Assembly (NCBI GenBank): GCA_964016885.1 | Contig: OZ024740.1 | Span: 307,024,001 to 307,088,000, forward strand | Origin: Eledone cirrhosa | Lineage: Eukaryota | Direction: 5' to 3' | DNA: 64,000 nucleotides | Shown: piece by piece, positions 5,260-56,253 of the stretch | How positions within the stretch are numbered: position 1 is the stretch's first letter | Layout: each line of letters opens with the position of its first letter | The notes under the pieces: model-generated | What the model was told of the DNA's origin: nothing | Databases searched by the model: none | Seen by the model: only the letters and a program-made list of their open reading frames with translations | Program-made: the position numbers and the translations under genes

Positions 5260-5309
<50 letters not shown>

Positions 5310-5810
5310 TATTTGATGTCTTGATGAGCTCATACAGCAGTGCAGATGTATGTGATTTGGTTGGCTTATATATCCTGGATCTACTGAAATTCAGGTTCTC
5401 TAATCACAATGTTGTTCTATACCAGGATCAGGGTCTGAATATTCCCCAGCATTATGATGGCCATACATTAGATCTTTCCATAAGGAACTAATATCTATGT
5501 TCTATAACCTAGGAATTAATGTAACAGTAGACACTAACCTAATCAAGGCAGATTTCCTCGTGTAACACTTGACTTCAACACACCTATGAGCTCTTCCACA
5601 AATGAAATGAGAAATTTGAATATATAAATATAAATCTTGCCAGCCCCTCTTAGTCTATAAAACCCTCATCCCTAATATCAGTTGCAGAATCTTTAATATG
5701 TCCCCTAAAGATATATTCAATAAAGCAGCCCTATACTATGCCTTACTCAAAAGATCCAAGAATAGACCAAGAAAAATCACTTAGTTTGCACACCTTTTCA
5801 CATTAAATAT
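5310..5810 (+). mobile_element. Degenerate Penelope-like element RT fragment
   Basis: Manual translation FDVLMSSYSSADVCDLVGLYIL, LYQDQGL, NLIKADFL-VTLD, RKIT*F resembles PLE RT motifs (MGSYDGAEVCELVGLYIL, YRDDGL, FLDVTLD, RKIxWFNPP); starts at (TA)n. Confidence 0.7.
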
Positions 5811-5863
5811 GATATTCTATGAAGATCAGCAACTCCCTAACACAAAATCCTTTATTTCTATAG

Positions 5864-8239: not shown

Positions 8240-8520
8240 TTTGATGTATTGAAGGCTTCTTTGGTTTATTTTCATAATATATATATATATATATATATAT
8301 ATTTATTTGTTTGACCCGAATTACTTGATCGTTTTTTGGGGGCTGTGCGAATGATTGTTTAACCATCGTCTCAGTGTGTTTGGTATTAAACGTTAGTTAT
8401 AGCTCTGGTTCTTCCGAACCATTGAGCACTTTGCCACACATCTCGGAGATTGTTTTTCGTTATTTCGTGGGCTGAAGTTGCGATTCTCGATCATTTTATT
8501 TCTATATATATATATATATA

Positions 8521-8556
<36 letters not shown>

Positions 8557-8562
<6 letters not shown>

Positions 8563-10200
8563 CCCTCTACTTAGCTTTTGTCGACTTGGAGAAAGCCTCC
8601 GACAGAGTCCCCCGCTCCATTATCTGGTGGGCTCTTAGAAAACTAGGCGTTGACGAATGGCTTGTGAGGGCTATACAAGCCATGTATAAAGAAACAGTCA
8701 GCAAGGTTAGAATTAACAACGAATATAGTGAAGAGTTTAGCGTAAAAGTTGGCGTCCATCAGGGCTCTGTTCTCAGCCCACTACTATTTATTATTGCCCT
8801 TCAGGCTATAACAGAGGAGTTCAAGACAGGCTGCCCATGGGAACTCCTATACGCAGACGACCTGACACTCATAGCGGAATCAATGGCCGAGCTAGAGAAG
8901 AAATTCCAAACATGGAAGCACGGCCTAGAGTCAAAAGGACTTAAAATTAACCTGGCTAAGACCAAAGTACTAGTTTGTAGGAAAGAAAACAAGGCAGCGG
9001 TCCCTTCTGGGAAATGGTCGTGCTCGGTGTGTAGGAAAGGCGTAGGTAGAAACTCCATTTTATGTCCTAAATGCAAAGTATGGGTGCATAAAAGATGTAG
9101 TGGGATCACAGGTAAGCTAACTAAGAACATAGATTTTACATGTGGCCAGTGCTCTGGTGCAATAAGTAGCAGCAAGTGCCCACAAAATACTAGCTCTTTC
9201 AATTGCGCAGAGGGTTCTATAGAAATAGTGGACAGCTTCCGTTACCTGGGCGATAAAATCAGCAGTGGGGGAGGGTGCTCTGAAAGTACTGTAGCTAGAG
9301 TCAGAACTGGTTGGAAAAAGTTCAGAGAGCTTTTACCACTATTAGCTGCTAAAGGGTTCTCACTAAAAATAAAAGGCAGGTTGTACGATGCCTGCATACG
9401 AACAGCAATGGCAGTGAGACCTGGGCATTGTGTGCAGAGGATAAACGCAGACTAGAGAGGAACGAAGCTTGCATGCTCCGCTGGATGTGTAACAGTAATA
9501 TACGTGAACGGCAAAGCATAAACGAACTAAGGAAAAAATTAGAGATAAGAGGGATCAGATGTTGTTTACTCGAGAGAAGGCTACGTTGGTATGGACACGT
9601 GATGCGCATGAAAGTCGATAGCTGTATAACAAAGTGCAGGGCAATAAAGATAGACGGTAGCCACGGAATAGGCAGACCTAGAAAAACCTGGGACGAGCTG
9701 ATAAACTCCGACATCACACACTTACACCTCTCCAAGACAATGTCACTGGACCGAGACCTTTGGCGGTACTCAGTAACAGAGAAGACCAGCCTTACCTAAA
9801 TATATAGTAAAACCTACTCCAGCCAGTAGGCATCTCTAACAAAATACACCCCATCCCACCACCACCACCCCCACCCCATCCACACCACCCCGTTCTATGT
9901 AAAGTTATGTTGGTGCCGCGCCATCGAGGCCGAAACAAATGAGATCGTGTAGGTGTCACGACAAAAAAAACACACAGTCCACGCTGTAATGTGGCCGTGT
10001 AGGCAACACGGTAAAAACCTCCCAGACCCACACTGTAAATGTGGTTGGTGTTAGGAAGGGCATCCAACTGTAGAAAACCTGCCAGACAGTCCTATGCGAG
10101 CAAGACAATCACTCTTGCCTCAAGTGGGACTACCCCCGTCCAAACCCATGCAAGCGTGGAACACGGACGTTAAACGTTGATGATGATGATGATGATGATG
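8557..10200 (+). mobile_element. RTE LINE subfamily A, 5'-truncated (RT with PHD-like insert, long 3' UTR, (GAT)n tail)
   Basis: FVDLEKA, GVHQGSVLSPLLF, LLYADD, FRYLG, RRLRWYGHVMRM, GRPRKTW; frameshift near 9410; (TA)n on both flanks. Confidence 0.92.
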
Positions 10201-10397
10201 ATATATATATACATACTGTATATATATATATATATATATACATACTGTATATATATATATACTGTATATATATATATATATATATACTGTATATATATAT
10301 ATATACATATATAGGTAAGTTATTCCGGGTTGAATTGGAGGTAATGACAATAAGGAAGGTACTCAATACATAGCAGAGTATAAAAGTTTTAATATAG

Positions 10398-10497
10398 ATG
10401 AGATTCTACAGGACTAGAACTGTTTCATTCTTGAGAAATCATCAGATTCCTGATGATTTCTCAAGAATGAAACAGTTCTAGTCCTGTAGAATCTCAT
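10398..10497. repeat. Perfect 48-bp-arm palindrome (4-nt spacer) in a Penelope pLTR-like remnant
   Basis: Arms 10398-10445 and 10450-10497 are reverse complements. Confidence 0.92.
10444..10494 (+). ncRNA. Type I hammerhead ribozyme motif
   Basis: AGATTC-CTGATGA-tTTC tcaa GAAt-GAAA-CAG ttctagtc CTG-TA-GAATCT: stems I, II and III all pair. Confidence 0.75.
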
Positions 10498-10645
10498 ATA
10501 TATATATATATAACCCAAAGAGGACAGAGAGAAAGAAAAAGATAAACGAAAATATGAACTCTTTTAAAAGTGTGTAAACCTTGTTCTCTTATACCATCTT
10601 GTTATATATACCTTAACTTTATTATACACTTTTTAATCATATTTC

Positions 10646-10696
10646 TTGTAGCATGAAGAAGCCTAAACAAGTTTTGGCTGAAACCGGTATGATCAA
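10646..10696 (+). ncRNA. Degenerate type I hammerhead motif
   Basis: aTGAAGA-AGCC taaacaagtttt GGCT-GAAA-CCGG-TA-TGATCAA; palindromic CCGG stem III; first core C mutated. Confidence 0.5.
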
Positions 10697-10804
10697 TTGC
10701 CCTTTTTTTAAAATAAATGTTTTGCTCTTATTCTATGAGAACATCCCATTACCATTTTCTACTGTTTTTCTTATTTTCCTAATATATATACATATATATA
10801 TATA

Positions 10805-11089
10805 GCTGTAGAAATGAAATGATTCGACAGGGTCCCTATCATTCCACTGCAAAGTGGTCGTGGAGGTGCCACGGCAAAAAAGTACCCAGCCCACACTGTA
10901 GAGTGGACGTGTAGGCACCACAGAAAAAAACCACCCAGCCCACACTGTAAAGTGGACGTGTAGGTGCCACGGAAAAAAAGCACCCAGCACTCACTGTAAA
11001 TGAGGTTGGTGTTAGGAAGGACATCTAGCTGTAGAAATCAAGCGAGAATCAGTTCCCGTCCCACCTTTGCAAGCAGGGAAAAGCGGACG

Positions 11090-11098
<9 letters not shown>
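10805..11098 (+). mobile_element. SINE 3' body with ~47-bp internal tandem repeats and an RTE-B-like tail
   Basis: Three to four CCCAGCCCACACTGTA..GTGG..GTG..GG units, GTTAGGAAGGACATC, TTGCAAGCAGGGAAAAGCGGACGTAAAA. Confidence 0.7.
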
Positions 11099-11120
<22 letters not shown>

Positions 11121-11201
11121 GTAGAAATTATATTTAATTTGTTGGAATTCCGACAAACATAAACTGATATAGAGCACTCAACAGTTACTGGAGTAAATAT
11201 T

Positions 11202-11441
11202 CCAAGATATTAATAAATGGAAACTATATTTATAAAACCAGATTTATTTTATTATATATATTTCGCTGGATAGTGAATTTCCAACCGCTAAGGTTGATTT
11301 CCATGGGTATGTCGTTATTTATAAAACAAATTTTGTATTTTATCTGATGAAAGAGCACCAAGATTGACTTGGTCGCCCTTGAAATATATATAATAAAATA
11401 AATCTGGTTTTATAAATATAGTTTCCATTTATTAATATCTT

Positions 11442-11443
<2 letters not shown>
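11202..11443. repeat. 63-bp perfect inverted repeat overlapping a hammerhead motif
   Basis: 11202-11264 is the reverse complement of 11381-11443; (TA)n follows. Confidence 0.9.
11336..11400 (+). ncRNA. Type I hammerhead ribozyme motif
   Basis: TATTTTAT-CTGATGA-AAGAGC ACCAAG attga CTTGGT c GCCCTT-GAAA-TATATA-TA-ATAAAATA; 8-bp stem I, long stem II, palindromic stem III. Confidence 0.8.
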
Positions 11444-11504
<61 letters not shown>

Positions 11505-29836: not shown

Positions 29837-29944
29837 ATATATATATATATCATCCTCATCATTTTCATCATGTATATATATATCATCACCACCATTTCCA
29901 TCATATATATATATAATTAGAATTGGTGCTCTGAAATAGCAATA

Positions 29945-30191
29945 TATATATGAATGTATATATAGTGTATTTTGCAATACACTGTATGCTTAATTAAAAG
30001 CATTTCGAAGACCTTACGCTATTGTTTTAGAGTAGTGACAGTCTCACTTACTTTAAATTTTCCTCCGTTTGCTGAAAATTTAAAGTAAGTGAGACCGTCA
30101 ATACTCTAAAACAATAGCGTAAGGTCTTCGAAATGCTTTTAATTAAGCATACAGTGTATTGCAAAATACACTATATATACATTCATATATA
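29945..30191. repeat. ~117-bp-arm foldback palindrome (13-nt spacer) with a hammerhead-like remnant
   Basis: 29945-30061 vs 30075-30191 with about 2 mismatches; CTGAAAA at the apex; GAAA-TGCTT ttaatt AAGCA-TA downstream. Confidence 0.88.
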
Positions 30192-30234
30192 CATATATAT
30201 ATAATCATTTTCATCATATATGTATTTTTTTTTA

Positions 30235-30566: not shown

Positions 30567-30911
30567 TGTATATATATATTGTATATATATATCAATGATC
30601 ATTATCATCATTTGACATCCTTACTATATATAAATATCTATGCATATATAATTATATCTATATATAAATATTTATAAATATATAATGTAGGTAATATTAA
30701 ATATTATCCAATTATCAAAGTGTAATATATGCATATATATCTATTTCAAAATGTGTGCATCCCAGTGCAAATCATCTTAATAATTGATCATTGTAAATTA
30801 TCATAGAGAATATTGGATAAATTTCCCCAGGAGATGGAAAAAGTGAGGAAATGAAGCGAGCATCTCTCTATCTATCTATCTATACATGTACAGACACAAA
30901 CAGACATATAT

Positions 30912-31026
30912 ATAATTCAAATTTGAAAGATATATTTAGAGAGAGAGCAAGAGTCATATATCATTTGAGAAACATTATATGATTCGTTCTCTCACTCTCT
31001 AAATATATCTTTTAAATCTGAATTAT
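30912..31026. repeat. Imperfect ~50-bp-arm inverted repeat
   Basis: AATTCAAATTTGAAAGATATATTTAGAGAG...CATATA vs TATATG...CTCTCTAAATATATCTTTTAAATCTGAATT. Confidence 0.7.
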
Positions 31027-31115
31027 TGATATGCTGAAGCAAGGTCCATTGAGCTTATATTTTGAGAAACATAATCATCATACATATTAAATAAGTATTG
31101 ATATCTTAACATAGG

Positions 31116-31208
<93 letters not shown>

Positions 31209-35212: not shown

Positions 35213-35497
35213 ATATGAAACACAAATGAACATTTTGAAGACCAACACAATGTGTATGGAGAATGTTAAATTGCCAAGATAACAAACAAATCTTACCTTA
35301 GCAAATTTAATGATCCAAAATATTTTGGGGTTTAAAAACCCATTATCAAGGGAGAGACTTAAAAATCGATCAGAGAGACTTGCTTGTTTGGGAGCAGATT
35401 TAAATTTGCTAAGGTAAGATTCTTTTGTTATCTTAGCAATTTAACATTCTCCATACGCATTGGGTTGGTCTTCAAAATTTAAATTTGTGTTTCATAT
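35213..35497. repeat. ~98-bp-arm imperfect inverted repeat, ~90-nt spacer
   Basis: 35213-35310 vs 35400-35497, bounded by (TA)n. Confidence 0.85.
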
Positions 35498-35544
35498 TAA
35501 ACAATGCTTCAAGCAAGCTACAAAACTTTGTTATATATATATAT

Positions 35545-47469: not shown

Positions 47470-49795
47470 ATCATCATCATCATCATCATCATTTTACGTC
47501 CGCTTTTCCTTGCTTGCAAGGGTGGGATGGATCTTATTCAGCACAGCATCTCTCCACTTGTCACGGTCCTTCGTCATCGACACCGTGAGCTTCAGAGATC
47601 TGAGGTCTGTTCTCACCACCTCCGCCCATGTTTTTTGTGGTCTACCTCTACCACGTCTTCCTTCAACTGGCATTTCCTGGCACTTCTTCCCTCATCGGTC
47701 ATCCTCCATACGCATCACATGTCCATACCACTGCAGTCTCCTCTCTCGCACACTACATTCTATCCCTCTCAGACACAGTTTCTCTCTCAACACATCCATG
47801 CTGGGTTGTTCACGCACATTGACATTGCATATCCAATGCTTCATTTCTCTCCAGTCATCATATATCCTCTGCAGTTGCTGCCCAAGTTTCACTACCATGC
47901 AGCATCGCGCTCCTCACACAGGCATCATATAACCAGCCTTTCGTACGCAGGGAGAAACCCTTCTTTGTCAGCAGAGGAAGCAGCTCCCTAAGCTTCTTCC
48001 AACCCGTCCTTATTCTAGATACTATGGCCTCGGAACACACCCCTCCCATTTTAATCTGATCTCCTAGGTACCGGAAGCCATCCACCACTTCTATAGCACC
48101 CACCTGCATTTGGAAAATGTGTCTATCAATGCGACTTCTACTGTCTAATTTCCCTGTACATCTACTGCATACGTATTTCTCCCTACCTGTTAGTTTGCCT
48201 GCTAGCCCACTACATCTCTTGTGTACCCAGGATCTGCATTGTGTGCATTTTATAGAATTTATGCCAGTTCATTTTCTGCATATTGAACATAGCCATTTCC
48301 CTGACGGAATCAGAGTTTTGTCCTCTTTTCTACTTATCAACACTTTTGTTTTAGCTAGGTTCACTCTTAGTCCTCTTGCTTCCAACTGCTGTTTCCATAG
48401 CCAGAATTTATTCTCTAGCTCCTCTACTGATTCTGCTATAAGAACCAGATCGTCAGCATAGAGAAGTTCCCATGGACAGCCAGTCTTAAACTCCTCTGTT
48501 ATGGCTTGGAGGACTATAATGAACAAGAACAGGCTGAAGACTGAACCTTGATGTACTCCTACTTGTATCTGAAATTCCTCACTAAACTCCATTCCAACCC
48601 TGACTTTACTGACAGCACCTCTGTACAAAGTTTGCACTATCCTCACAAGCCATTCCTTAACACCTAGTTTGTTTAGGGACCATCAGATGACAGATCGGGG
48701 TACCCTATCAAAGGCCTTCTCTAGGTCAACAAAGGCTAAGTATAGTGGCTTATTCTTCTCTAAGAACCTCTCTTGTAATTGTCTGACCAAGAAGAGGGCA
48801 TCTGTTGTACTTTTCCCAGGCACAAAACCAAACTGCATCTCATCTAGTTTGACCCTTTCTCTAATTAGTTGTGCTTATATCCTTTCTGCCACTTTCATAA
48901 CCTGATCCATCAGTTTTATACCCCTATAATTGCTCCTAATCAGAGCATCCCCTTTACCTTTGTAGCAATTTATGAGAATACTGCTGCACCAGTCTTTGAG
49001 TATGACACCACCATATATAGCCTGATTGATGATGCGTGCAACCAGTTTAGTGCCTATGTCCCCTGATGCCTTCAGCATCTCAGCAACTATCCCCGACAGT
49101 CCAGCAGCCTTACCATTTTTCATTTCCTTAATCGTCTCTTGGACCCTATATTCGTCAATCTCAATAGCTGGTTCCTCTGTCGGGTCTACTGAGGGTAATT
49201 TCTCTCTCTCCCATTCGTTCTCCACATTCATCAGTCCCTCGTAATGACATTTCCAGGCCTCCTTTTTCTGATAATTCGTGACACTAAGTACGCCGGCATC
49301 ATTCCGGACACATTTATCTCCAACAATATTCCGATTTGCATTGACACACTGCCTTGCAATGCGGAACACCACACGCCACTGATCTTCCCGTCGCAGAACA
49401 TTGGCAAACCTCCTACTCTCAGCCTCCCTGCGTACTAAGTACACCTGATGTTTAGTTTCTCTCTTAGTGGCTGTATATCCTTCTCTACTCCCACCCTTTT
49501 TCCAAGCCTTCCATACTAGTCTTTTGTCTCTAATGGCCCTATCTACTGTGCTGTTCCACCACCAGGTCACTCTCTGTCTGGTTGGAGCTCTGCTCCAGCC
49601 ACAAGTTTCATCAGTAGCCTGCAGCAAGTTGTCACGTAAGAAATTCTAGTTATTATCTATGTCATACGTCTCTAAATCGTCTTCTTTTTCGTCATATACA
49701 TCTTGAAGGGCTTTCCTAAATTTGTATTTTAGTGAAAGGTCTTTTAGCTTCCAGACCTTTTTTCTCCACACCTTCCTGACCTTCCTGTATGTCTC
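47470..49795 (-). mobile_element. RTE subfamily B, 5'-truncated, with stops and frameshifts
   Basis: TWWWNS, GKAAGLSG, NYRGIKL, LLYADD, PHD-like insert, (GAT)n tail. Confidence 0.92.
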
Positions 49796-50249
49796 ATACA
49801 GAATAATGGACGTAAAATGGTGATGATGATGATGATATATACTTGGAATTTGTAGTTTACTCGAACCATTGTATATGATATAACGAATTTGTAGTTTGAA
49901 AGCCATGAGAATGCAAATAGGACCAATAAACAATTAAGTCGTAAGAAACGGGGAGTGTTTTTTTTACCTTAATTTATTCATATTTTTCCTTAAAAGAAGT
50001 GATATTAATCTCAGAATATCAGGACATGAATAAATTAAGGTAAAAAAACACTCCTCGTTTCTTATAACTTAATTGTTTATTGGTCCTATTTGCAATTTTG
50101 TGGCTTTCAAACTACAAATTCGTTATACAATGGTTCGAGTAAACTACAAATTCCAAGTATATATCATCATCATCATTATCACCATTTTACGTCCATTATT
50201 CTGTATGAGACATACAGGAAGGTCAGGAAGGTGTGGAGAAAAAAGGTCT
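49753..50249. repeat. ~225-bp-arm inverted duplication, 44-nt spacer
   Basis: 49753-49981 vs 50026-50249 with a few mismatches and indels. Confidence 0.92.
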
Positions 50250-50446
50250 TACGATTTGATTATTTCTTTCTTCAATTCGCATTGTCATGGCTTTCAAACT
50301 TCAAATTCTTTATAAATAAATATATATACTGACCACATCATCTTCACTCTTTAAATATGACACTGTTAATGACAACACTAATATCTATGTATCTTTATGA
50401 TTGTTCTGTTGAATAGGAGGTTAATTATATGTCTAAACTTTGCTAG

Positions 50447-50532: not shown

Positions 50533-51950
50533 TCATCATCATCATCATCATCATCATTTTACGTCCGCTTTTCCCTGCTTGCAAGGGTGGGATGGGTCTT
50601 ATTCAGCACAGCATCTCTCCACTCGTCACGGTCCCTCGTCATCTCCACCGTGAGCTTCAATGATCTGAGGTCTGTTCTCACCACCTCCGCCCATGTTTTT
50701 TGTGGTCTACCTCTACCACGTCTTCCTTCAACTGGCAATTCCTGGCACTTCTTCACCCATCGGTCATCCTCCATGCGCATCACATGTCCATACCACCTCA
50801 GTCTCCTCTCCCGTACACTACATTCTATCCCTCTCAGACACAGTTTCTCTCTCAACACATTTATGCTGGGTCGTTCATGCACATTTACACTGCACATCCA
50901 ACGGAGCATGCTTGCCTCATTTCTCTCCAGCCGTCGCATATCCTCTGCAGTTGCTGCCCATGTCTCACTACCATGCAGCATCGCGTTCCTCACACAGGCA
51001 TCATACAACCGGCCTTTCGTACGCAGGGAGAAACCTTTCTTCGTCAACAGAGGAAGCAGCTCCCTAAACTTCTTCCAACCCGTCCTTATTCTAGATACTA
51101 TGGCCTCGGAACACCCTCCTCCCATGCTAATCTGATCTCCTAGGTACCGGAAGCTATCCACCACTTCTATAGCGCCCTCTTGCATTTGAAAAATGTGTCT
51201 ATTAGTGCGACTTCTACTGTCTAATTTCCCTGTACATCTACTGCATACATATTTCTCCCTACCTGTTAGTTTGCCTACTATCCCGCTACATCTCTTGTGT
51301 ACCCAGGATCTGCATTGTGTGCATTTTATAGAATTTATGCCAGTTCCTTTTCTGCATATCGAACATGGCCATTTCACTGACGGAATCAGGGTTTTGTCCT
51401 CTTTTCTACTCATCAACACTTTTGTCTTAGCTAGATTCACTCTCAGTCCTCTTGCTTCCAACTGCTGTTTCCATAGCCAGAATTTATTCTCTAGCTCCTC
51501 TACTGATTCTGCTATAAGAACCAGATCGTCAGCATAGAGAAGTTCCCATGGACAGCCAGTCTTAAACTCCTCTGTTATGGCTTGGAGGACTATAATGAAC
51601 AAGAGCGGGCTGAGGACCGAACCCTGATGTACTCCTACTTGTATCTGGAATTCCTCACTAAACTCCATTCCTACCCTGACTTTACTGAGAGTACCTCTGT
51701 ACAAAGTTAGCACTGTCCTCACAAGCCATTCCTCAACACCTAGCTTCCTTAGGGACCACCAGATAACAGATAGGGGTACCCTATCAAAGGCCTTCTCTAG
51801 GTCAACTAAGGCTAAGTAGAGTGGCTTATTCTTCTCTAAGAACCTCTCTTGCAATTGTCTCACCAAGAAGAGGGCATCTGTTGTACTCTTCCCAGGCACA
51901 AAACCAAACTGCATCTCATCTAGTTTGACCCTTTCTCTAATTAGTTGTGC

Positions 51951-51951
<1 letters not shown>
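50533..51951 (-). mobile_element. RTE subfamily B, 5'-truncated, uninterrupted 451-aa RT/PHD-like/C-terminal frame
   Basis: QFGFVPGKST, DLEKAFD, GVHQGSVLSP, YADD, FRYLG; stop directly before the (GAT)n tail; 5' end at (TA)n. Confidence 0.95.
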
Positions 51952-51987
<36 letters not shown>

Positions 51988-52745
51988 TCATCATCATCAT
52001 CATCATCATCATCTTTGTTTAACGTCCACTTTCCATGCTAGCATGGGTTATATATAATATATAAAAATTAAATGGAAAAAAACTCAGTCTGCGAGTATAA
52101 ACAAGATAGGCAAAAAACATTTTTTTATCTAACTTTGTATATATATAGATCTCCCTACCATGGTTTCATTTGGGGAAGAATTAATATTGGAACCACCAAT
52201 GATTGAAGAATTTAATTCTTCAAGTCTAAGAGAAATCGAACAACTTATGATACATACTGTTTCCTTAGCATAGCAAAATGGTAAAATAAAAATGTTATCA
52301 AATGTCCTAGGGTTAATACTCTAGGAGATTTGAGACTACTTGACAGGCTTATAATGTCGCTAGAAATAGCAGCTTAAAGACCGTCTGGTACAGCTCGACA
52401 AATTAAGGAGCAGTTTAATATTAATTAAAGGTTAATTAATCTCTAATACTTAAACATTTCAATGAAAGAACTCTCTCAGAGAAGCAATATTATATATTAA
52501 AATTAAATGACAAAAAAGTTCTCCTTGTCCTCCTTCTTTTTCAATCTTTTCTATATTTCATCTACATGTCACCCACCTTATTGATTGTATCTATGTTGAC
52601 CACTGGTCTCTGTCCTCAGAGGCATTTTTGACCATCGCTGTCTTTGACACCATTTAGCTGTTTTAACAGCTAGTGATGAGTTTTCTTATTTTTATATGTA
52701 TTCATTCAAATACACTCTCATTTTGTCTCGATCAGCGACAACATT

Positions 52746-53417: not shown

Positions 53418-53518
53418 TATAAAGAAAAAGAGATGAAATCGAAAATGCAACTGGAGTCTTATTTTTTTTAAAAATAAGACTCCAGTTGCATTTTCGATTT
53501 CATCTCTTTTTCTTTATA
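53418..53518. repeat. Perfect 49-bp-arm palindrome
   Basis: 53418-53466 vs 53470-53518. Confidence 0.92.
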
Positions 53519-53573
53519 CTTTCACTCGTGTAGGACACCTCGGTTATTTTTCATTTTGTAAAAAAAACCTCAC

Positions 53574-53604
<31 letters not shown>

Positions 53605-53605
<1 letters not shown>

Positions 53606-55670
53606 CATCATCATCATCATCATCATCAACGTTTAACGTCCGTGTTCCACGCCTGCATGGGTTTGGACGGGGGTAGTCTCACTTGAGGCAAGAGTGATTG
53701 TCTTGCTCGCATAGGACTGTCTGGCGGGTTTTCTACAGTTGGATGCCCTTCCTAACACAAACCACATTTACAGTGTGGGTCTGGGAGGTTTTTACCGTGT
53801 TGCCTACACGGCCACATTACAGTGTGGACTGTGTGTTTTTTTGTCGTGACACCTACACGATCTCATTTGTTTCGGCCTGGATGGTGTGGCACCAACATAA
53901 CTTTACATAGAAGGGGGTGGTGTGGATGGGGTGGGGGTGGTGGGACGGGGGTGTATTTTGTTAATGCCTACTGACTGTAGTAGGTTTTACTATGTATTTA
54001 GGTAAGGCGGGTCTTCTCTATTACTGAGTACCGGCAAAGGTCTCGGTCCAGTGACATTGTCTTGGAGAGGTGTAAGTGTGTGAGGTCGGAGTTTATCAGG
54101 TCGTCCCAGGTTTTTCTAGGTCTGCCTATTCCGTGGCTACCGTCTATCTTTATTGCCCTGCACTTTGTTATACAGCTATCGACTTTCATGCGCATCACGT
54201 GTCCATACCAACGTAGCCTTCTCTCGAGTAAACAACATCTGATCCCTCTTATTTCTAATTTTTTCCTTAGTTCATTTATGCTTTGCCGTTCACGTATATT
54301 ACTATTACACATCCAGCGGAGCATGCAAGCTTCGTTCCTCTCTAGTCTGCGTATATCCTCTGCACACAATGCCCTGGTCTCACTGCCATGCAACATTGCT
54401 GTTCGTATGCAGGCATCATACAACCTGCCTTTCATTTTTAGGGAGAACCCTTTAGCGGCTAATAGTGGTATAAGCTCTCTGAACTTTTTCCAACCAGTTC
54501 TGACTCTAGCTACTGTACTTTCAGAGCACCCTCCCCCACTGCTGATTTTGTCACCCAGGTAACGGAAGCTGTCCACTATTTCTATAGAGCCCTCTGCGCA
54601 GTTGTAAGAGCTAGTATTTTGTGGGCACTTGCTGCTACTTATTGCACCAGAGCACCGGCGGCCACATGTAAAATCTATGTTCTTAGTTAGCTTACCTGTG
54701 ATCCCACTACATCTTTTATGCACCCATACTTTGCATTTGGGACATAAAATGGAGTTTCTACCTACGCCTTTCCTACACACTGAGCATGGCCATTTCCCGG
54801 AAGGGACCGCCGCCTTATTTTCTTTCCTACAAACTAGAACTTTAGTCTTAGCCAGGTTAATTTTAAGGCCTTTTGATTCTAGGCCGTGCTTCCGTGTTTG
54901 GAATTTCTTCTCTAGCTCGGCCATTGATTCAGCTATGAGTGTCAGGTAGTCTGCGTATAGGAGTTCCCATGGGCAGCCAGTCTTGAATTCCTCTGTTATG
55001 GCCTGAAGGGCAATAATAAATAGTAGGGGGCTGAGAACAGAGCCCTGATGGACGCCAACTTTTACGCTAAACTCTTCACTATATTCGTTGTTAATTCTAA
55101 CCTTGCTGACTGTTTCTTTATACATGGCTTGTATAGCTCTCACAAGCCATTCGTCGACACCTAGTTTTCTAAGGGCCCACCAGATAATGGAACGGGGGAC
55201 TCTGTCGAAGGCTTTCTCCAAGTCGACAAAAGCTAAGTATAAGGGTTTACTTTTAGCTAGGTACTTCTCCTGTAGTTGTCGTACAATGAAAAGAGCGTCT
55301 GTGGTACTTTTGCCTGACACAAACCCAAACTGCATTTCATCTAGGTCAATTCTCTCTCTGATTAGCTGCGCTATTACTTTTCCCGTGACCTTCATGACCT
55401 GGTCGATTAATTTAATGCCTCTATAGTTACTCCTATCTAGGGCATCTCCTTTACCCTTATAACAGTTAACGATGATGCTGCTATGCCAGTATTTCGGAAC
55501 AAACCCATTCTGTACGACTTGGTTAACTATCCGGGTGACCATGGTGTGTCCCACCGTGCCAGATGCCTTCAGCATCTCAGCAACTATTTCTGAAGGCCCA
55601 GCCGCCTTACCTGTCTTCATATCCTTGATTGCCTTACTTATTATGCTGCCCTCGCCTCGACTAACACTGC
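53605..55670 (-). mobile_element. RTE subfamily A, 5'-truncated; frame open but catalytic YADD changed to YADY
   Basis: ORF 53998-55670: GKAAGPS, NYRGIKL, QFGF, DLEKAFD, YADY, PHD-like insert; long 3' UTR; (TA)n flanks. Confidence 0.95.
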
Positions 55671-55700
55671 TATATATATATATATGTGTATATATATATA

Positions 55701-55775
<75 letters not shown>

Positions 55776-55779
55776 TCAC

Positions 55780-55854
<75 letters not shown>

Positions 55855-55885
55855 GATGATGATGATATATATATATATATATAAT

Positions 55886-55937
<52 letters not shown>
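55671..55937. repeat. Compound (TA)n-(CAT)n-(GAT)n-(TA)n microsatellite
   Basis: Direct reading. Confidence 0.95.
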
Positions 55938-55940
<3 letters not shown>

Positions 55941-56253
55941 AGGCACATGGCTTAGTGGTTAGAGCATTGGCCTTGCAATCGAAAGGTTGTGAGTTCAATT
56001 CTCAGACTGGGTGATGTGTTGTTTCCTTGAGCAAGTCACTTTATTTCCCATTGCTCCAGTTTACTCAGATGTAGAAATGAGATGGAAAGTGGTCGTGGAG
56101 GTGCCAAGGCAAAAAAGCACCCAGCACTCACTGTAAATGAGGTTGGTGTTAGGAAAGGCATCCAGCTGTAGAAATCAAGCCAGAATCAATTCCCGTCCCA
56201 GCCTTGCAAGCAGGGAAAAGTGGACATAAAATAATGATGATGAATGATGATGA
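55938..56253 (+). mobile_element. Composite SINE: tRNA head, CORE-like block, GGAAGGGCATCC module, RTE-B 3' tail
   Basis: GGCACATGGCTTAGTGG, GAGTTCAATTC, TCCTTGAGCAAGTCACTT, GTTAGGAAAGGCATCCAGC, CCTTGCAAGCAGGGAAAAGTGGAC, (GAT)n. Confidence 0.8.

Follow-up and report, generated by a model that had tools for sequence, protein, structure and literature searches.

A probable Penelope-like insertion in Eledone cirrhosa: a palindrome whose apex may favour the edge of a predicted self-cutting hammerhead RNA

INTRODUCTION

Insertions of Penelope-like elements (PLEs) as head-to-head palindromes with a one-sided tail are already known, being covered in parts of two studies (PMC3846280, PMC8557442). The inverted 5′-truncated copy and the one-sided tail (30–40 nt) of PLE insertions are described in PMC8557442, where the role of the hammerheads carried by PLEs is called unclear. 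File S1 of that study gives (TA)n targets for nearly all elements of the Hydra clade. Its File S2 contains Hydra-clade hammerheads of the form CUGAUGA-U...U-GAA with a short, U-flanked stem II (the U.U flank is listed for many Hydra-clade motifs) and, in several families, with ACAG/CUGU as stem III; the protein motifs RWK, DKT-like and CxCX5C are given as marks of the clade. A PLE protein was shown in vitro to cleave the two strands of its target and to extend both, using two RT start sites, and ribozyme cleavage is dispensable for the reaction (sections of PMC11167929).

In the partial text of PMC3846280 hammerheads have no occurrence, so that study does not place the inversion junction at a ribozyme. 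A search of the openly accessible literature found no paper that places inversion junctions at a hammerhead.

We analysed a window of 64,000 nt of the Eledone cirrhosa genome (contig OZ024740.1, positions 307,024,001 to 307,088,000 of the forward strand); coordinates below refer to this window. It contains an inverted insert, probably of a PLE family, and the apex of such palindromes may favour the edge of a predicted self-cutting hammerhead RNA.

RESULTS AND DISCUSSION

Layout of the 10.4-kb locus

Positions 10398–10445 and 10450–10497 are perfect reverse complements separated by the loop ATTC; the perfect 48-bp arms reported in the initial annotation are thus borne out, and with one mismatch allowed they reach 54 bp (10392–10503). 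The minus-strand copy continues as an unpaired extension. Its length had been given as ∼90 nt, up to a (TA)n run near 10310; the tail is indeed present, at a corrected length of ∼80–86 nt (the family end is at 10316–10319 and the TA run ends at 10305). The 4-nt loop is a part of the right (short) copy, and the loose ends leading into native upstream sequence start before 10443 and behind 10445. The features are collected in Table 1.

Table 1. Features of the inverted insert at 10.4 kb
Feature	Position	Strand	Remark
Left (TA)n-rich microsatellite target	10201–10313		Loose ends at 10319 enter TA repeats (301 + 368 reads)
One-sided tail of the long copy	10314–10391	−	Recurrent family end at 10316–10319; TTGAGYAC-like motif at 10367
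Left arm, inverted 5′-truncated copy	10392–10445	−	Begins with core base C3; 5′ strand of stem I missing
Junction CAG-ATTC-CTG	10443–10452	+	3-bp microhomology common to both copies
Type I hammerhead motif of Hydra-clade build	10444–10494	+	Predicted cleavage after A10488
Right arm, short copy	10450–10503	+	Ends at the mirror of the recurrent short family end 10392
Right (TA)n target	10497–10512		X1 record 5 covers 10483–10772 with 1 difference

It is likely that 10314–10503 is one insertion, made of two very short 3′-end copies placed head to head in (TA)n. The locus has no ORF frame, and for a read-through RNA the predicted fold is the 48-bp hairpin and not the ribozyme; the copy is therefore an inert retrotransposon stub. 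The TTGAGYAC-like tail motif also occurs at 11182 and in two metagenome loci, L044 and L100; it was defined post hoc from these sequences and gives soft support.

Hammerhead motif and predicted folding

On the + strand, stem I has six Watson–Crick pairs (10444–10449/10489–10494). The core CUGAUGA is at 10450–10456, GAAA is at 10469–10472, and stem III (10472–10475/10484–10487) has four pairs and an 8-nt loop. In the GUA triplet H17, the predicted cleavage site, is A10488. Letters and stems match the + strand fold and the cleavage position proposed earlier. The parts of a type I hammerhead (core CUGANGA, GAAA, UH and three helices) are all found, with a stem II of just 3 bp (10458–10460/10465–10467, UCAA loop). 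The presence of all three stems, also claimed in the initial annotation, holds for the + strand copy and fails for the minus-strand copy, where the 5′ strand of stem I is missing. The G10.1–C11.1 pair next to the core is present in most hammerheads; here U10457.U10468 takes its place.

A hammerhead descriptor identified three loci in the window (10450, 11344 and 53151), and the same descriptor had no matches in 100 block-wise dinucleotide shuffles. Rfam gave no hammerhead match at the gathering score. Among the 31 Rfam matches with E up to 10 in 10250–11500 there was no hammerhead either; hairpin and miRNA models appeared there below threshold only, which is a consequence of the palindrome.

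The 48-bp hairpin is predicted at −82.8 kcal/mol, and all hammerhead pairs within the palindrome have a predicted P of about 1e-48. In these folding models, the long hairpin would replace the ribozyme fold in read-through RNA; that is, the palindrome is predicted to switch that fold off. For the isolated 51-mer, P for all hammerhead pairs is about 1e-3 (∼0.1%, tertiary contacts ignored), and the monomer is predicted by folding to be a weak ribozyme. Folding of the 51-mer dimer did not yield the hammerhead fold; stem III alone is predicted to dimerise (−12.8 kcal/mol).

In the consensuses of loose ends, stem I occurs in a variant that has two double changes (AGAUUC/GAAUCU versus GGCUUC/GAAGCC), the 5′ and 3′ changes being taken from separate pooled consensuses and not from single reads. 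Among the differences listed, the variable sites close to the core lie in loop II.

Assignment of the family

Reads and contigs of four runs (X1, X4, X12 and X13) were aligned to 10312–10780 at 85% likeness. The alignments (6859 X1 contigs, 5271 of 12.47 M X12 reads and 5651 of 12.79 M X13 reads) are concentrated on 10312–10503. Copies end in TA repeats at 10316–10319 (read counts in Table 1) and at 10385 or 10392. As in EN+ PLEs, copies are dispersed, 5′-truncated, and tandem or inverted, and the two sets of recurrent ends, 10316–10319 and 10385/10392, correspond to an optional tail at one end; the preference for (TA)n targets is that of the Hydra clade. Judged from sequence, the family is very probably a high-copy Penelope-like element, likely of the Hydra clade. 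Four features support the earlier description of the tail as PLE pLTR-like: the abundance of copies, the (TA)n ends, the tail on one side and a hammerhead build that matches Hydra-clade PLEs.

The link of the family to any ORF is indirect: no RT/GIY-YIG ORF was tied to it within the 30 letters that loose ends give. Among the 33 long frames of the window, 18 were scanned; five have RT-related domains (three of them RT plus PHD), and GIY-YIG was found in none of the 18. A decayed Hydra-type Penelope RT fragment is located at 5309–5811, right after a (TA)n run (tblastn E 4e-14), and has a by-eye likeness to Hydra-1_Obim; it is not joined to the 10.4-kb element. Altogether, 10314–10503 is likely an insertion stub of ordinary type, from a Hydra-type PLE family that is probably unlisted.

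A pattern of the U-flanked hammerhead build was matched in 7 viral and 113 metagenome stretches. In the resulting 119 loci, 20 of 121 pattern matches passed the stem filter; the remaining matches are probably due to chance. In blastn none of the 119 loci resembles the window family, and the exact 26-nt family motif had no match in metagenomes. PLE-like protein matches occur in 7 of the 119 loci, in two of the seven by construction.

One metagenome contig, L044 (1–2936), holds an apparently complete Hydra-clade Penelope-like element, with the hammerhead motif at both ends of a 745-aa frame that contains RWK, DKS and CxCX5C. Its protein (P0001) is matched by L100 and L101; of 7999 candidates scored, 2917 are related to it at E ≤ 1e-50. 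Pfam recognised neither P0001 nor P0002, and their assignment thus rests on motifs read by eye against PMC8557442. A different RT-like frame is present in L038, L039, L087 and L072. In L038 (262–3048) and L072, a hammerhead of the same build lies a short way downstream of a 929-aa RT-like frame belonging to another PLE-like group, hence the U.U-flanked pattern is not exclusive to the Hydra clade. A similar motif also occurs in L027, L036 and L046.

Family reads at the apex

Reads that reach the apex are largely non-inverted and continue into native upstream sequence; loose ends of this kind were found at 10443 (540 and 541 reads), 10445 (650 and 802) and 10447 (390 and 374). It follows that the native element reads CAG-ATTC-CTG, which gives the junction 3 bp of microhomology. 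Position 10444 is crossed away from read ends by 205 X12 and 246 X13 reads, i.e. 11–13% of apex reads plus listed loose ends; in X1, ∼2% of depth crosses the apex. Roughly 2–12% of family copies would then cross it, a rough share since the RAD reads favour certain loci and the depth of contigs does not count copies. Scored on reads for inversion at the apex, the majority of family copies are not inverted at that base.

At least three variants of the junction exist at the apex. One, found in 9 contigs and in 39 and 50 reads (6 and 8 starts), has an additional G; another, with a loop of greater length, is represented by 81 and 96 reads, in each case from a single start. In X1, records 3 and 4 span the apex with 10 and 14 differences. 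Inversion joints elsewhere (in loop II and at other positions) have, among those listed, at most 67 reads in X12 and 110 in X13. One further apex-like junction in run X4 (6 contigs, depth 2–5) is too thin to count. Among the copy ends listed there is no pile-up at the cleavage site, and among the X1 pieces listed none crosses the apex of the 10.4-kb locus itself with exact identity.

These data bear on three alternatives to a PLE insertion event at this site. An assembly or library fold-back artefact would agree with the observation that none of the contigs listed spans the whole stretch. It is hardly credible, as the apex is crossed by contigs and reads in the independent runs X1, X12 and X13, both outer ends are recurrent family ends, and diverged inverted inserts of the same layout exist elsewhere in the window.

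The palindromic stub might instead be a non-autonomous mobile unit, made once and then amplified; X1 records 3 and 4, crossing the same apex despite their differences, and the ∼2% of X1 depth would fit such a unit. We regard this as improbable: several different loop sequences are found at the apex, the outer ends are identical to those of the family at large, and a palindromic RNA is a poor template.

A head-to-tail joint from 10445 to 10382 (3 X1 contigs and tens of reads) defines a unit of ∼78 nt that includes a complete hammerhead and is as long as a minimal retrozyme-like repeat. This joint speaks for a non-LTR retrozyme, a short tandem hammerhead repeat that is not the end of an ORF-bearing element, and retrozymes have been proposed, in passages of 10.64898/2026.07.22.740005, to derive from PLE pLTRs. 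Against a retrozyme, which we consider very improbable here, the joint is rare, since in each RAD run more than 1500 reads have another, longer upstream sequence; the locus is inverted and not built of tandem units, the tandem joint making up a small share of family reads; TA-bounded ends and a tail are PLE traits; and stem III is long compared with 1–2 bp in canonical animal type I motifs.

Other inverted inserts in the window

We examined nine inverted inserts. With 895–1014 set aside, six of eight have a one-sided extension of 34–86 nt between (TA)n runs. The hammerhead core is present in three of the nine. In two of them (10.4 kb and 53.1 kb) it lies at the apex, in the third (11.3 kb) inside the spacer. 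The 11.3-kb insert (11121–11451) is head to head between (TA)n runs, with a 73-nt tail on the left and a hammerhead at + 11344 (8-bp stem I); the core lies 80 nt inside a 116-nt spacer, and the junction is not at the apex.

The 10.4-kb and 53-kb elements have a local alignment score of 17 (shuffle mean 17.2; reached by 267 of 500 shuffles) and no blastn match. The initial annotation had seen no similarity between them beyond the core and had taken their shared geometry to be probably independent; both statements hold, the similarity being at chance level. Such independence is what the published pattern of PLE insertion predicts for any family.

Unpaired letters in the 10.4-kb loop and the 11.3-kb spacer belong to the short-tailed copy, which rules out a simple fold-back of one target-primed cDNA at these two inserts; self-priming on an antisense or extrachromosomal template is compatible with this arrangement. 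At 53.1 kb the loop base is a part of the long copy, and the geometry fits fold-back and two cDNAs equally.

Further repeats were noted. A separate TA-bounded repeat at 10513–10782 contains a decayed minimal hammerhead-like motif (∼10654–10695) with a palindromic stem III; it has a lower copy number, and reads differ from the window at several positions. The palindrome at 53418–53580 (49 bp, perfect) has a right tail of 61 nt, lacks a hammerhead core and has a (TA)n run in common with the 53-kb element. Diverged inverted inserts lie by (TA)n runs at 29916–30194, 30905–31119 and 35213–35531; two have clear one-sided tails, and no hammerhead core was found in the three. In the inverted insert at 49753–50314 the arms include ∼90 nt of a neighbouring repeat, followed by a further partial copy; it may be a trace of synthesis that continued backwards beyond the end of the element. 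The small element at 895–1014, with terminal inverted repeats between TA runs, presumably resembles a Tc1/mariner-type miniature transposon. Three fragments of one kind of LINE with RT plus PHD finger are found at 8403–9455, 50559–52037 and 53998–56001, and inverted copies of the 3′ end of this LINE at 9.6–10.2 kb and 53.6–54.2 kb. A tRNA-like match just above the Rfam gathering score (55946–56009) is probably a SINE head.

Origin of the palindrome

Two cDNAs from two start sites may have made the palindrome, a mechanism to which we give about an even chance. The element endonuclease would cut both strands of the TA target, and each DNA end would prime a cDNA. The long and the short start site would serve one cDNA each, which would account for the one-sided tail. 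The 5′ edge of the hammerhead would be the point where both cDNAs stop or are trimmed, and they would anneal via CAG/CTG; repair fill-in would then yield the perfect palindrome, with the hammerhead motif carried along as a part of the element's end.

Alternatively, the palindrome of the same element might arise by self-priming of antisense RNA (or extrachromosomal cDNA) folding back at its 3′ end, after which the endonuclease would resolve the arms at different points; head-to-head palindromic junctions are explained so in the passages of PMC3846280 on this model. We incline against this possibility. The loops of 1, 3, 4 and 11 nt in four window inserts agree with it, as do the weak fold of the antisense DNA end on CAG/CTG (−0.8 kcal/mol) and the arms of 49753–50249, which hold flanking repeat, as expected of synthesis that went backwards beyond the end of the element. 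However, self-priming depends on a putative antisense template; the 11.3-kb insert has its 116-nt spacer, and sense RNA extends both target strands in the in vitro experiments of PMC11167929.

There are 27 inverted repeats of at least 3 bp in 127 nt of the element, so microhomology alone does not select the apex, which leaves room for a real preference for the hammerhead 5′ edge. That edge could be a preferred RT stop or turnaround, making apex palindromes recur in unrelated families; the cause would be a boundary of a structure or of protein binding, the start of a transcript, or a splice site. We find such a hotspot doubtful. In its favour, two of the three hammerhead-bearing inverted inserts have the apex at most 6 nt from C3; apex-crossing reads in X12 and X13 exceed every listed alternative joint; there are several junction variants at the apex; the head-to-tail joint also begins ∼8 nt upstream of stem I; and an intron of D. 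virilis ends at the 5′ end of helix I (a passage of PMC4209133). On the other side, detection favours reads that match the reference apex over split reads, and a joint upstream of the reference cannot be seen; the RAD data are biased towards certain loci, with 81 and 96 reads of one variant coming from one start; the three inserts (n = 3) were picked after the fact; and none of 20 well-formed hammerhead rows in metagenome and viral loci showed such an inversion.

Taken one step further, the PLE hammerhead fold would act as a positional signal and not as a nuclease, marking the 5′ edge where reverse transcription stops or turns. We rate this as unlikely. If it were true, unrelated families should keep yielding palindromes centred on the stem I/core boundary, and the conserved, apparently dispensable PLE ribozyme would gain a role in integration. 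How junction positions are distributed, taken together with the side of the unpaired spacer and tail, can separate the two-cDNA from the self-priming model of Penelope integration and provides a test of the hammerhead as a stop site.

Comparison with known systems

Closest to the window element are the Hydra-clade PLEs (Craig et al. 2021, PMC8557442). In the parts of that study on hammerheads and insertions, they share with it the type I motif with U after CUGAUGA and U before GAA, the short stem II, the 4-bp stem III (ACAG/CUGU in several families), the location of the hammerhead ∼100–200 nt from the 3′ end, (TA)n targets, the inverted 5′-truncated copy and the one-sided tail. The window family is neither Hydra-1_Obim nor another of the listed families: its hammerhead is different, and four of its motifs are absent from the supplement text of the study. 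Loop III of 8 nt and stem II of 3 bp are further differences. The tail is longer (66–86 nt at the 10.4-kb insert versus 30–40 nt), and no ORF was linked to the window family.

Penelope insertions of Adineta vaga (Arkhipova et al. 2013, PMC3846280), as described in the passages on junctions, are similar in the palindrome at the inverted junction, the tail on one side and the microhomology at the 5′ junction; unlike in the head-to-head pLTRs there, both copies at 10.4 kb are <140 nt. The minimal hammerheads of metazoan PLEs (Cervera and De la Pena 2014, PMC4209133) have the same type I topology, occur in opposite-strand pairs and are dispersed as single motifs from truncated PLEs. According to the sections describing them, these motifs have little or no helix III, a long helix II and G10.1–C11.1, unlike the window motif, and their opposite-strand pairs are 100–700 bp apart, also unlike the window. 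The 53-kb motif is of this minimal kind; the 10.4-kb motif is not.

Animal non-LTR retrozymes also place a type I hammerhead in a short non-coding repeat; as presented in parts of 10.64898/2026.07.22.740005, they consist of tandem units each with a hammerhead, whereas the window locus is inverted. In the in vitro work on Poseidon of Anolis (Frangieh et al. 2024, PMC11167929), which concerns a different clade and is free of head-to-head joining in the passages covered, two RT start sites explain the tail, targets are AT-rich, both strands are extended and ribozyme cleavage is not needed, in likeness to the window element.
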